NCBI GenBank assembly: GCA_017134395.1
Contig: CP070993.1
Location: forward strand, 153,231 to 187,655
DNA length: 34,425 bases
DNA from: Candidatus Kaiserbacteria bacterium
Lineage (GTDB): Bacteria > Patescibacteriota > Minisyncoccia > Phycocordibacterales > UBA2100
Direction: 5' to 3'
The position numbers and the translations under genes are program-made. Below, in pieces: positions 5,040 through 8,096 of the stretch (positions are counted from its first letter, which is position 1; every line of letters starts with the position of its first letter). The notes under the pieces were generated by a model that did not search any database, was not told the DNA's origin, and saw nothing but the letters and a program-made list of their open reading frames with translations.

Positions 5040-5113
5040 GGGCCAGTAGCTCAGTTGGCTAGAGCGCCTCACTTGCACTGAGGAGGCCGGGGGTTCGAGT
5101 CCTCTCTGGTCCA
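5040..5113 (+). tRNA. tRNA-Ala (anticodon UGC); CCA not encoded
   Basis: Hand-folded cloverleaf. Acceptor GGGCCAG/CTGGTCC with the G3:U70 alanine identity pair, D arm GCTC-AGTTGGCTA-GAGC, anticodon arm CCTCA-CTTGCAC-TGAGG, and T loop TTCGAGT. Confidence 0.9.
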
Positions 5114-5129
5114 CATAGACATGTAGAAT

Positions 5130-5286: not shown

Positions 5287-5301
5287 CGAGTCCTCTCTGG
5301 T
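5287..5301 (+). repeat. Direct repeat of the tRNA-Ala 3' end (tRNA fragment, att-like scar)
   Basis: CGAGTCCTCTCTGGT at 5287-5301 is identical to tRNA positions 5096-5110. Flanking bases show weaker T-arm similarity. Confidence 0.75.
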
Positions 5302-5377: not shown

Positions 5378-7243
5378 ATGGAAGTGGGACCGTGGAAATC
5401 AGAGTCAGTCGAAAGCCCAGAACTTTTTCGTGGAACACTTGGATTTGACTTCGTGTTTACACGCGAAGATGGAAAGCTGAAGTGTTATTGTATCGAATTC
5501 AATGGGAGCAATAGTGGAGTACAAGGAGTGCGGCGGCTGCCTGCAGATGCTCTCGATGCAACACACAAAATTTTGGCATCAGTACGAAGCTCAGCAAGTG
5601 AAAAAACGCGAGAAGCAGTACGAAAGTACAACGATTTCATTAGAAGAAATCCGGACCAGTCTTTTTCAGTGGTGGTAGCAGGCCATCTTCGTGCACAGCT
5701 CGATGATGCACCATTGCATACGCATGAATATTCAAATCCGGAATTTATCCAAGATATAACACTGAATAAACGGCGCCAGGAAGAATATATACCACGCGCT
5801 AACCGACCAAACTCGTGGAAACCGGGCGATTCCACGAAATCTAAGAGCGGGTTTTGGATCTATAAAGAGGGTGGTTCGTCGCGTGGACAGGGTATCTACA
5901 TTCTTTCCGATACTGAACTAGCAGATATGCTTAAAGAGGCACCGAAGATAGACGAATCGACTCTTGGTAATGATGTTATACAAGAATTGTTGCCGGTCAC
6001 CGGTGCAGAAAATGCAACAGAGGCACACAAAAATCGTGCAGCTTCCATGCGCCTACTAATGGACTTCCGCTATTTAGAAGGCGGGACGATACAGTCGGAC
6101 TTTTCGACCAGCTATCAGCGAATTGCACCTCATGACAAAAATAGTACACAGACACCCGGTGGTGAGGATTTTCAAAAAGAGGATACTTTGGTGGTTAATT
6201 ATTCAACAGGTGCGCTTTCGGCTGCGGCTTCGCCAATGGAAATAAAGCTCGCAAAAGAAGTCGCAGAAAAAGTTATTCACAATCTAGCTAACACGTACAT
6301 AAAGAAGATGATTAATGAAGAGAAAGTACATCGACTTATGTTGGAAGTACCAACGGGCCGCTCACGCGAAGTAAGTGCAGTCAATAAGGAAGTGAATGAT
6401 GCACTTATTACATTGTACACGCGCTTTGAGGATACGTATGGTAGAGATTATCTACCATTTCATAATAGCTACCACACTGCGCGTGTTATTGCACGAGTCG
6501 ATAAGATATGGCGCAGTATTGACGAAGGTGAGCACGATTTAAAAGAGTACCTTCTTCTACGGCTATGTGCAGCATTTCATGACAGTGTTCAAAAATGGAA
6601 GTCATTCGAGATTGAAGAAGACTTCAATGGGCAGAAGTTTACGAAAATCGTTAGGAAACGTTTTACCGGACAAAATGAGAAAGAGAGTGCAGGTGAGCTT
6701 GTCGCATGTATGCGCCAGATTAATCAAGAAGTTAACTACGATTTTTTCTCTCGCGAAGATGAGCGTGTTGCACAGGAGGCCATTCAGGCAACGATACCTG
6801 CATTTGATATTGCACGTGGTACCGTGGGACAACCCAAACTTGAAAAACACTCATCGCGTGTTACACGACTTCTAGCACTTGCCGATCTCGGAGCTGCGGG
6901 ACTGGAGTCGGAAAAATTTGTATATGAAGGCAATAGAATTTTCCAAGAAGAAAACATTGATATCTATGAAGCCTTGCAAAGCCCTGAAAAGATCGATGAT
7001 GCGCATAAAGAATATTTTAGACATAGAATGTTCGAGTGGTCGAAGTCACAACCAAGATTCGCCAAAGGGCGACAACGACTCTTAGAGAAGGAGTTGGTTA
7101 GACTGCCACAGCGCGAAAAGAAGGAAATTAGATATCTGTTTTGCGGTTTTGAAGAAAGTATTGCATATGCAAAAGAGGCAGTTGAGAGACGACGTACTAT
7201 GAGTTTCGAGGAGCTTGCAAAAGATATGGGGTACGAGTTCTAG
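5378..7243 (+). CDS. ATP-grasp (tubulin-tyrosine-ligase-like) / HD-domain phosphohydrolase fusion protein
   Basis: 621 aa. ATP-grasp/TTL-type motifs FWIYKEGGSSRGQGIYIL, VIQELLP, MDFRYL and LVVNYSTGA, plus GFDFVF...YCIEFNGSNSG at the N-terminus. The C-terminal half has the H...HD pattern (FHNSYHTARVIA ... LCAAFHDSVQ). Confidence 0.6.
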   Translation: MEVGPWKSESVESPELFRGTLGFDFVFTREDGKLKCYCIEFNGSNSGVQGVRRLPADALDATHKILASVRSSASEKTREAVRKYNDFIRRNPDQSFSVVVAGHLRAQLDDAPLHTHEYSNPEFIQDITLNKRRQEEYIPRANRPNSWKPGDSTKSKSGFWIYKEGGSSRGQGIYILSDTELADMLKEAPKIDESTLGNDVIQELLPVTGAENATEAHKNRAASMRLLMDFRYLEGGTIQSDFSTSYQRIAPHDKNSTQTPGGEDFQKEDTLVVNYSTGALSAAASPMEIKLAKEVAEKVIHNLANTYIKKMINEEKVHRLMLEVPTGRSREVSAVNKEVNDALITLYTRFEDTYGRDYLPFHNSYHTARVIARVDKIWRSIDEGEHDLKEYLLLRLCAAFHDSVQKWKSFEIEEDFNGQKFTKIVRKRFTGQNEKESAGELVACMRQINQEVNYDFFSREDERVAQEAIQATIPAFDIARGTVGQPKLEKHSSRVTRLLALADLGAAGLESEKFVYEGNRIFQEENIDIYEALQSPEKIDDAHKEYFRHRMFEWSKSQPRFAKGRQRLLEKELVRLPQREKKEIRYLFCGFEESIAYAKEAVERRRTMSFEELAKDMGYEF

Positions 7244-7264: not shown

Positions 7265-7570
7265 ATGAACATCTTACTTTTGATTGTTGCAGGAGCTGTT
7301 GGTGTTGCACTCGGTGTGTACTTTGGGAAAGGGAATGATGTACCTACTGTGTCCTTTGGTAATCGTAAGCGAAAACGTTTAGACAAAATACTGACACTGT
7401 ATATAGATAATGATGAAATAACTAACAGTGATGTACGAGAGCTACTAAACGTATCTGATGCAACAGCGACACGGTACTTGGACCAACTAGAAGACGAAGG
7501 CAAAATAGAACAAATAGGTGAGACAGGAATGAATGTATTCTACCGCTCAACAAAGGCTCAAAATCTGTAA
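7265..7570 (+). CDS. Membrane-anchored winged-helix DNA-binding protein
   Basis: N-terminal TM helix (NILLLIVAGAVGVALGVYF), basic linker RKRKR, then a wHTH-like segment (ITNSDVRELLNVSDATATRYLDQLEDEGKIEQIG). The start could instead be the GTG at 7247, 3 nt after the upstream stop. Confidence 0.6.
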   Translation: MNILLLIVAGAVGVALGVYFGKGNDVPTVSFGNRKRKRLDKILTLYIDNDEITNSDVRELLNVSDATATRYLDQLEDEGKIEQIGETGMNVFYRSTKAQNL

Positions 7571-7596
7571 ACGCCTCAGTAATTGAGGCGTTTAGT
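7567..7596 (+). repeat. 30-nt exact repeat, copy 1; here it acts as the terminator hairpin of the wHTH gene
   Basis: GTAAACGCCTCAGTAATTGAGGCGTTTAGT has a 10-bp stem AAACGCCTCA/TGAGGCGTTT and is followed by TTTT. An identical 30-mer lies at 22416-22445. Confidence 0.9.
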
Positions 7597-7650
7597 TTTG
7601 CTTTCTTTGTTTAACAAGTTCATACTCCTCTCAGATTGGAGGATTCAAAA

Positions 7651-7773
7651 ATGGATAACGTTGGTAGGATTTTACTCATGATTGCACTAGGGCTCGCCTG
7701 TGCTCTTGTTATTGGAACGTGGACATCTCACGACCCACAAACAAACAACATGATGCTCCAAAGAATCCAGTAA
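7651..7773 (+). CDS. Micro-ORF, 40-aa hydrophobic peptide
   Basis: MDNVGRILLMIALGLACALVIGTWTSHDPQTNNMMLQRIQ. GGAGGA lies 7 nt upstream of the ATG and a hairpin terminator follows immediately. Absent from the ORF track because it is under the size cutoff. Confidence 0.4.
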   Translation: MDNVGRILLMIALGLACALVIGTWTSHDPQTNNMMLQRIQ

Positions 7774-7780
7774 CGGATTC

Positions 7781-7820
7781 ATAAACCCTAGGCGAATTTA
7801 TTCGCCTAGGGTTTATTTAT
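7781..7820 (+). terminator. Hairpin terminator after the 40-aa micro-ORF
   Basis: ATAAACCCTAGGCGAAT tt ATTCGCCTAGGGTTTAT followed by TTAT. Confidence 0.5.
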
Positions 7821-7948: not shown

Positions 7949-8023
7949 ATGGACGATAACCAAGGAACAACAGAAGGAACAGAAGCGGAAGCTCCTGCAA
8001 CAGAAGGAGAAGCAACTGAATAG
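7949..8023 (+). CDS. Micro-ORF, 24-aa acidic Thr/Glu-rich peptide (speculative)
   Basis: MDDNQGTTEGTEAEAPATEGEATE. No obvious SD. Two hairpins follow (8041-8060 and 8068-8096). Confidence 0.2.
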   Translation: MDDNQGTTEGTEAEAPATEGEATE

Positions 8024-8067
8024 TTCAGTTCTATTCCAGACTACACATTCATTTGTGTAGCATACAC

Positions 8068-8096
8068 AAAATCCCGCTTCGGCGGGATTTTGTTTT
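8068..8096 (+). terminator. Intrinsic terminator with a UUCG loop
   Basis: AAAATCCCGC ttcg GCGGGATTTT followed by GTTTT. Confidence 0.75.

Follow-up and report, generated by a model that had tools for sequence, protein, structure and literature searches.

Introduction

The window analysed here, a stretch of 34,425 nucleotides from the genome of a Candidatus Kaiserbacteria bacterium (contig CP070993.1, positions 153,231 to 187,655 of the forward strand), carries at 5378-7243 an open reading frame (ORF) without interruption whose product, P0001, raises a simple question: why does the magnesium-binding strand of an ATP-grasp ligase, which normally comes last, lie at the N-terminus of a protein that continues into what looks like an HD phosphohydrolase? 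A preliminary description made from the letters of the DNA had suggested either a circular permutation or the remnant of a second, truncated ATP-grasp domain, and its author knew of no ligase-plus-HD fusion of this type. We consider it likely that P0001 is a natural fusion of two normally separate enzymes, namely a circularly permuted ATP-grasp ligase (the N-half) and a hydrolase resembling the class I 3',5'-cyclic-nucleotide phosphodiesterases (PDEs; the C-half), and it is this structural and enzymatic reading, taken as a whole, that we develop below. The source genome, that of an uncultured bacterium, is a single contig of 687,746 bp (0.69 Mb; 97.7% complete), and the closest named relatives of the window neighbourhood are metagenome-assembled genomes (MAGs) of Candidatus Kaiserbacteria.

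The ATP-grasp half

When checked on the translation, the ORF and all the motifs quoted in the preliminary description were recovered at their residues: the hairpin at 22-47 (G-F-D-F ... C-I-E-F-N-G-S-N-S-G), F159-L176 with K163, V200-P206 with Q202 and E203, M228-L233, L271-A279 with N274 and, in the second half of the protein, H362, H366 and H401-D402. They are not chance matches, since the residues concerned are invariant or at least 90% conserved in the alignments of relatives. The segment H318-S329, which had been taken for a degenerate E-x-N strand, was also in place, but the alignment of the N-half and that of P0001 with its full-length relative P0002 both make it an unconserved interdomain linker instead.

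The N-half was aligned with 34 stand-alone homologues (alignment A1, 35 members). Residues C38, E40, G47, R70, K131, K163, G170, R225, D229, F230, R248 and E288 were invariant, and D24, N42, Q202, E203 and N274 were at least 90% conserved. The most conserved block comprised residues 15-47 (E-L-F-R-A-T-L-G-F-D-F-I-F ... C-x-E-I-N-G-x-x-S-G), and 33 of the 34 homologues start 10-30 residues before this same hairpin, the exception (P0110) being N-terminally short; a longer upstream domain was found in none of the 34. The remaining ATP-grasp landmarks all follow the hairpin (K131, W-I-x-K163-P, the Gly-rich loop at 165-172 with G170, the Q202-E203 hinge, R225, D229-F230, Y246-Q247-R248, N274 and E288), and the catalytic set of the fold, i.e. 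two lysines, Gly-rich loop, hinge Q/E and D/E ... E-x-N triad, is complete in P0001.

AlphaFold2 models were made for each half separately, that of the N-half on A1 (predicted local distance difference test, pLDDT, 92.4; predicted template modelling score, pTM, 0.88). Two long hairpins stand out in this model, one N-terminal (15-30/33-42, pLDDT 92-98) and one at 222-233/238-249, and its last helix spans 286-322. No strand lies past residue 282, so there is no C-terminal Mg-binding hairpin, and because none follows the last helix in the model, the ATP-grasp fold needs the N-terminal hairpin.

Compared with the PDB by Foldseek, the N-half model best matched yeast and human glutathione synthetase (GS; E 3e-5 to 4e-4), followed by GSS-like nematode effectors, YjfC/YgiC, glutathionylspermidine synthetase (GspS) and 3N6X. 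A wide search independent of Foldseek returned ATP-grasp proteins in 49 of its 50 best chains, the exception being an exosome subunit at rank 42; the model, these 49 chains and the Foldseek E of 3e-5 place the N-half in the ATP-grasp fold. No structure of Cdc123 (R2K/Cdc123 clade, PMC7824862) was among the matches listed for the N-half. The wide-search alignments of the permuted families begin at model residue 11-14 and extend to ~287; these families are 3N6X and 3K1T (Z 8.5 each), GSS30/22 (8.4), the fungal E-64 ligase Cp1B (8.1), GspS (7.9; chain 306-615) and Trypanosoma brucei GS (TbGS, 7.7; chain 111-554), with YgiC likewise. Canonical families, comprising TTLL11 (Z 8.4), TTLL6, ArgX/LysX, synapsin, E. 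coli GshB, Ddl and RimK, align just from residue 65-120 to ~305-320 and omit the hairpin. The order in P0001 is that of the permuted families, with D24, E40 and N42 coming before K131 and K163. By range offsets D24 corresponds to D121 of TbGS and lies one residue off D318, a Mg ligand of GspS. In TbGS the floor of the nucleotide pocket is built from an early hairpin, beta5/beta6, together with the late strands beta20/beta21, and in yeast GS D130 and E146 are among the Mg ligands (PMC2845819); the spacing of 16 residues between D24 and E40 equals that between D130 and E146 (PMC2845819).

Profile comparisons at the sequence level were non-collinear. The top PDB sequence hits of the A1 profile matched its lid region with Pby1/TTL (E 7e-4), and a second stretch, individually insignificant, laid the hairpin onto TTL residues 319-338, out of order. 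Against a canonical ATP-grasp protein from a same-class genome of the candidate phyla radiation (CPR), profile positions 174-219 fell on residues 143-185 and positions 29-50 on residues 262-279. Once the profile had been un-permuted in silico, the two HMMER stretches were collinear but not merged into one domain (a weak result), and hhalign against E. coli YgiC aligned the lid region alone (E 8e-4, 24.7% probability).

The earlier label 'TTL-like' (tubulin-tyrosine ligase) holds for ~50 residues round the lid and not elsewhere. Against Pfam TTL (PF03133) P0001 scored 13.1 bits over 27 residues, below the gathering score of 20.1, and the canonical order of that family, with the E-x-N hairpin near the C-terminus, is absent from P0001, where the hairpin lies at 22-47. 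Weak Pfam matches among the 35 N-half members were to TTL (24 members, best E 3.4e-7), ATP-grasp_3 (21) and YheCD (12); GSP_synth was matched by two (E 0.048 or weaker), and P0001 itself matched none of GSH_synth_ATP, GSP_synth, CP_ATPgrasp_1 and CP_ATPgrasp_2 at E up to 10. TTL and YheC/D therefore show the best similarity to the N-half at the level of sequence, and the hairpin motif G-F-D-F ... E-x-N-G is itself TTL-like, but TTL is of canonical order, with its hairpin at 319-338, and the structural alignment with TTLL spans model residues 69-320 only. Eukaryotic GS (2HGS, 1M0W and TbGS 2WYO) and the GSS-like effectors have, like P0001, the hairpin before the lid (Z 7.7-8.4); eukaryotic GS nevertheless shares only ~10% identity with the N-half, is ~470 rather than ~320 amino acids long, and has substrate-binding and dimerisation parts that P0001 lacks. 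GspS, the YgiC/YjfC peptide-spermidine ligases and CP_ATPgrasp (3N6X, 3K1T) are permuted as well (Z 7.9-8.5), model residues 13-285 lying on GspS 306-615.

As modelled, the N-half is a true circular permutation with the known GS/GspS/CP_ATPgrasp topology. The structure comparisons and the non-collinear sequence matches bear out the first of the two proposals of the preliminary description; the structural check suggested there found the N-terminal hairpin ordered, paired in order with permuted ATP-grasps and required to complete the fold. The permutation type is not new: eukaryotic GS, GspS and the CP_ATPgrasp proteins all have it, and a passage of PMC2845819 cites Polekhina et al. (1999) for a 'rare gene permutation event' in human GS. 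The ESM-Atlas gave as leads for the N-half, and as leads only, unannotated Chlamydiota proteins of 395-409 amino acids and CP_ATPgrasp clusters.

The PDE-like half

In alignment A2, which sets the C-half beside 49 stand-alone homologues (its numbering plus 324 gives that of the full-length protein), H362, H366, H401, D402, E434, S437, T472, D503, F522, E524 and E572 were invariant, and W554, Q558, F561, G564 and R565 nearly so. The motif of the HD superfamily, H ... H-D ... D on an all-helical core, is present, H366, H401-D402 and D503 all being invariant. The AlphaFold2 model of this half (pLDDT 96.3, pTM 0.93) has an extra beta-hairpin at model residues 83-104, and its top 50 Foldseek hits in the PDB were without exception class I PDEs (E 2.8e-3 and weaker, probability ~1, full-length coverage).

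The wide search agreed: all of the top 17 chains were class I PDE catalytic domains (Z 13.8-15.9, 214-237 residues over model residues 3-285), with PDE9A, 7A, RhoPDE, 1B, 4D, 4B, LmjPDEB1, 2A, TcrPDEC1, 5A, 3A, 8A and yeast PDE2 as members. They were followed by 2PQ7 (Z 13.0), YpgQ (12.1) and YedJ (10.8), and then by the SidE PDE domain, PPX/GppA, Mesh1/SpoT and HD-GYP (Z 8-10.4). For helical proteins a Z below ~13 can be generic; the PDE block lies above that line and is homogeneous. The best PDB matches of the A2 sequence profile were PDE4D, 4A, 4B, 7A and 8A (E 0.014 and weaker), the block F-H-N-x-x-H-T ... H-D being aligned with Y-H-N-x-x-H-A ... H-D of the PDEs (PDE4D).

The C-half has the class I PDE fold of three helical subdomains, and it shares this architecture and the residues H-N-x-x-H ... 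H-D ... D with PDE1-10, RhoPDE, TcrPDEC1, LmjPDEB1 and yeast PDE2. It differs from them in sequence (12-16% identity), in being bacterial (CPR), and in lacking the class I signature H-D-x-x-H-x-G-x-x-N, in place of which P0001 reads H-D-S-V-Q-K-W. The 'HD phosphohydrolase' of the preliminary description, proposed on H362/H366 ... H401-D402, is upheld by these residues and by the HD motif, and can be refined to class-I-PDE-like.

The nature of the reaction is less clear-cut than the fold, and whether domain 2 is a PDE of the cyclic nucleoside monophosphate type or some other HD-type hydrolase strikes us as close to a toss-up. As such another enzyme, e.g. a (d)NTP pyrophosphohydrolase like YpgQ/YedJ, an alarmone hydrolase or an HD oxygenase, it is a serious candidate to which we lend a little less than equal credence. 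The generic HD scores are good (the 2PQ7, YpgQ and YedJ values given above, and ~9 for Mesh1/SAH/SpoT), the PDE signature after H-D is lost, and similar 'HD superfamily hydrolases' are found in jumbo phages. P0001 itself matched neither Pfam HD (PF01966) nor PDEase_I (PF00233), and the weak matches among the 50 C-half members favour HD (nine members, best E 0.0076) over PDEase_I (two, E 0.0015 or weaker), with HD-CE in three. Against it stand the 17 best structure matches, all to class I PDEs and running over ~230 residues that include a C-terminal helical subdomain absent from small HD proteins, and the H-N-x-x-H ... H-D block, which is aligned to PDE4D by sequence. A further point is the conserved Q558-x-x-F561, 55 residues past D503, which resembles the PDE purine clamp by position only. 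In PDE4D this clamp is Q369-x-x-F372, 51 residues past D318; the likeness of spacing is a positional argument, and when the last third of the PDE-like domain was searched as a profile, the PDB gave no PDE match.

The jumbo-phage proteins were met in BFVD, in phages Goslar, phiRSL1 and PaBG. Leads for the C-half in the ESM-Atlas, again leads only, were cyanobacterial hypothetical proteins of ~323 amino acids and the Pfam 38.1 family Npun_R2479. Nothing relevant was found in the literature searched on 'HD-CE' and 'Npun_R2479'.

Rarity and persistence of the fusion

A word-indexed search of 5.8 billion clusters detected one full-length relative, P0002 (614 amino acids, 45% identity), from an independent ENA assembly. 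An exhaustive HMMER search of 1.84 billion representatives (50% clustering) detected 623 relatives, and those with a recorded source all came from uncultured bacteria. Architectures were counted on 150 listed relatives of the 623: 36 contained only the N-half (query residues ~7-318; 310-345 amino acids long), 112 only the C-half (query residues ~333-620; about 300-320 amino acids long), and two, P0001 and P0002, contained both. Searches for longer proteins yielded P0001 and P0002 only for the N-half and, for the C-half, one unrelated protein of 1066 amino acids with a distant C-half-like region. The stand-alone families, which are separately encoded and unlinked where P0001 has them fused, are 30-47% identical to the matching half of P0001 and have the same catalytic residues.

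The survey of this architecture for which the preliminary description had called thus finds the fusion in two clusters and the halves otherwise separate, and the author's unfamiliarity with it reflects a true rarity. No description of an ATP-grasp/HD fusion was found in the literature searched, and the architecture occurs twice only in the databases searched. It is new, assembled from known kinds of domain, and both families are without Pfam or NCBIfam annotation in the copies searched.

The alignment of P0001 with P0002 runs over their full length, with residues ~309-335 as the sole gap-rich and unconserved stretch, and both catalytic residue sets are intact in the two proteins. With gaps and loss of conservation confined to the linker, this alignment argues that the fusion is real, old and maintained, and that H318-S329 is part of the linker.

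The N-half has also been joined to another partner. In the metagenomic protein P0093 (439 amino acids) an N-half relative is followed, where P0001 has the PDE-like domain, by a C-terminal GNAT acetyltransferase domain (residues 320-412, E 4.4e-9), a fusion that fits an amine- or amino-acid-directed ligase taking different partner enzymes. Among C-half relatives, four stand-alone proteins of 407-418 amino acids (P0029, P0068, P0070 and P0090) carry an N-terminal extension of ~100 residues that is acidic, of low complexity or coiled-coil-like and has no Pfam match.

Linkage of the two halves outside the fusion

We inspected 14 N-half loci (five from species genomes, eight from metagenomes and one on a second contig of the Kaiserbacteria MAG G004) and six C-half loci. 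The neighbours of both families were varied and mostly housekeeping (leuS, recG, clpB, ddl, rplS, xerC-like, NTP-transferase, M20 peptidase and MscS genes), and an all-against-all BLAST of 11 N-half loci, the six C-half loci and the window revealed no recurrent partner gene, the exceptions being ClpB upstream in one subfamily and the ddl and uvr synteny with G004. Adjacency of N-half genes to a tRNA gene was seen in two independent groups (tRNA-Ala and tRNA-Tyr) and is not general. PADLOC and PHROGs models gave no meaningful match to either half. No true N-half was found in 300 sampled genomes of the same class, where two weak partial hits were canonical ATP-grasps, or in 200 other genomes of the order of G003.

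Two side observations were made in these loci. In one MAG of an uncultured bacterium, the ORF that lies downstream of an N-half gene and encodes leucyl-tRNA synthetase (L001:6948-9689, + strand) contains a NUDIX domain (residues 408-528, E 1.8e-12), which separates the editing domain from the remainder of the catalytic core. In two same-class genomes, G172 and G243 (loci L008 and L009), canonical ATP-grasp genes of the YheC/D or TTL-like sort form tandems of two to three, adjoined in L009 by the gene of a 319-amino-acid H-E-x-x-H protein, an arrangement that may represent a peptide-modification cluster of CPR genomes.

Several results weigh against our reading of P0001. The whole protein has no match in Pfam, NCBIfam or the PDB sequences at E up to 10, and scanned as two halves it gives as best Pfam matches the 13.1 bits to TTL and a chance match to GDH_C. 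As P0001 has no database membership of its own, the family assignments rest on profiles and predicted structures; in the Pfam check for TTL, ATP-grasp and HD that had been recommended, P0001 itself stayed below the thresholds and its relatives matched weakly. The Z of ~8.5 for the N-half is middling, and the C-half has lost the class I PDE signature. Beyond the fused proteins, N-half and C-half genes lie next to each other at none of the 14 N-half loci and none of the six C-half loci within the available flanks. No C-half was found anywhere in the five N-half genomes, and C-half matches occur in 16 of the 300 same-class genomes, strong ones in six, the N-half family being present in none of these 16. 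Functional coupling of the halves is hence unsupported outside the fusion, because they are never adjacent at the loci inspected and never co-occur in the sampled genomes.

These linkage data are what would be expected if the fusion were a neutral accident, in which the stop codon dividing two unrelated, adjacent genes was lost and the domains remain independent and act on unrelated substrates. The varied, mostly housekeeping neighbours of both families point the same way, as does the N-half gene of G004, which stands alone and ends ~10 residues past the last helix. We nevertheless regard an accident as unlikely, if by no means negligible: the fused form has been kept across 55% sequence divergence with both catalytic sets intact and the linker alone degraded, which argues for selection on the joined form.

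The locus and its history

The features of the locus are collected in Table 1. Upstream of the fused gene the window contains the 3' end of uvrA, then uvrC, murB, ddl, a pterin-4a-carbinolamine dehydratase gene and the tRNA-Ala gene. Base composition is uniform over the window. The membrane-anchored winged helix-turn-helix (HTH) gene noted earlier is indeed present, starting 3 nt past the stop of the fused gene, and its product consists of an N-terminal hydrophobic helix and the winged HTH; no homologue of it was seen near any relative's locus inspected.

Table 1. Features of the fused gene and its surroundings; positions are those of the window.
Feature	Position	Strand	Description or evidence
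Whole ORF, P0001, 621 aa, ATG start	5378..7243	+	read as fusion of permuted ATP-grasp ligase and PDE-like HD hydrolase
N-terminal beta-hairpin, residues 15-47	5420..5518	+	predicted Mg ligands D24 (5447-5449), E40 (5495-5497), N42 (5501-5503)
ATP-grasp ligase domain, residues 1 to ~322	5378..6343	+	alignment, AlphaFold2 model, structure matches
Interdomain linker, ~residues 309-332, poorly conserved, includes H318-S329	6302..6373	+	alignments
PDE-like HD-superfamily phosphohydrolase domain, residues ~329-621	6362..7243	+	alignment, model, structure matches
Key residues of PDE-like domain	H362 6461-6463; H366 6473-6475; H401-D402 6578-6583; D503 6884-6886	+	
Membrane-anchored winged-HTH gene, 107 aa	7247..7570	+	co-transcribed with fused gene; HTH_24, E 2.5e-8
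Terminator-like hairpin	7568..7594	+	closes the two-gene unit
tRNA-Ala(UGC)	5040..5114	+	upstream of fused gene

The most informative comparison is with G004, which is 77%, 50% and 41% identical to the window in uvrA, uvrC and ddl respectively. In that MAG the N-half, with 35% identity to P0001, has a gene of its own, which directly follows ddl and continues onto a second contig, and the product ends ~ten residues past the last helix; a GIY-YIG gene and then tRNA-Ala(UGC) come after it. The gene order is accordingly ddl, dehydratase, tRNA-Ala and fused gene in the window vs ddl, N-half, GIY-YIG and tRNA-Ala in G004. This comparison makes the ligase gene an old resident of the ddl/tRNA-Ala neighbourhood, in which the order was rearranged, with the PDE-like half added in the lineage of the window. 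The last 15 nt of the tRNA-Ala 3' end (5096-5110) are exactly repeated 191 nt downstream (5287-5301), 5' of the fused gene, and this duplicate does not bracket the fused gene.

Downstream of the two-gene unit, a 45-amino-acid ORF with one hydrophobic helix (7636-7773) lies between the terminator of the winged-HTH gene and an acidic micro-ORF, with a hairpin at ~7778-7812 after it. The micro-ORF (7949-8023) encodes 24 amino acids rich in Thr, Glu, Ala and Gly and ending in Glu, contains a 23-nt imperfect direct repeat (7968-7990 and 7998-8020), and is followed by a strong terminator-like hairpin (8066-8093). With its C-terminal Glu and its own terminator-like hairpin, the product of this ORF might be taken for a peptide that the ligase modifies in the fashion of RimK or TTL. 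We hold this to be very improbable: none of the 11 other loci scanned has an acidic micro-ORF like it in the 2.5 kb around the N-half gene, the winged-HTH gene and a terminator separate the micro-ORF from the fused gene, and no Shine-Dalgarno sequence was seen before its ATG. That residues 22-47 are the remnant of a second, 5'-truncated ATP-grasp, the other proposal of the preliminary description, to which the duplicated 3' end of the adjacent tRNA gene and the local rearrangement relative to G004 might lend colour, is scarcely credible and was rejected because 33 of the 34 stand-alone homologues aligned begin with the same hairpin and none of the 34 has a longer domain upstream of it, the hairpin moreover being the family's most conserved block and belonging to an ATP-grasp that has no C-terminal hairpin of its own and with which permuted structures align in sequence order.

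Proposed mechanism

The data above show the two folds, the permutation, the conserved catalytic residues, the separateness of the two families elsewhere, and how rare yet persistent the fusion is. Beyond this we infer that each domain is catalytically active and that joining them couples two steps. In domain 1 the N-terminal hairpin, with D24, E40 and N42, would pair with the hairpin at 222-249, the two making up the floor on which the nucleotide sits. Over this floor would lie a lid that carries K131, K163 and the Gly-rich loop, with Mg-ATP bound between hairpin and lid. By analogy with all ATP-grasp ligases, the domain would activate a carboxylate by phosphorylation, giving an acyl-phosphate, whose acyl group would then be transferred to an amine, R225 and R248 being the likely binders of phosphate or carboxylate. 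In domain 2 a metal pair would be held by H366, H401, D402 and D503, H362 would serve as general acid, and the domain would break a phosphodiester bond or possibly a phosphoanhydride bond, a nucleotide being the most likely substrate. The fused protein may then act twice on the same nucleotide-linked or amine-containing metabolite or protein, or catalyse two steps of one pathway.

The nearest working analogy is the GspS synthetase/amidase, in which, as in P0001, a permuted ATP-grasp synthetase is joined to a hydrolase. The hydrolase of GspS is, however, an N-terminal CHAP amidase that reverses the ligation, whereas the partner in P0001 is a C-terminal domain of the phosphoesterase type, and a phosphoesterase cannot simply reverse an amide ligation.

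A bolder proposal is that bacteria have, in the C-half family, a genuine lineage of class-I-type cyclic-nucleotide PDEs, a class otherwise treated as eukaryotic, and that in the fused protein this domain and the ligase jointly synthesise and break down, or otherwise process, a nucleotide-amine or nucleotide-peptide conjugate not yet described, within an ultra-small bacterial symbiont. We regard this as a speculative suggestion with a small chance of being right.

Implications

What the locus provides is a clean annotation and a testable enzyme. It holds no surprise of principle, offers as yet no mechanism past generic chemistry, and does not of itself open up a long-standing question. A place can now be given to two sizeable families, which together account for the 623 relatives and for which the Pfam and NCBIfam copies searched contain no model: one is a compact, circularly permuted ATP-grasp ligase, the other a bacterial hydrolase built like the eukaryotic class I PDEs. 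The TTL-like motifs inside a permutation of the GS type bear on whether that permutation had a single origin or arose repeatedly, and the two fusions of the ligase, with the PDE-like domain and with GNAT, are a starting point for finding the substrates.

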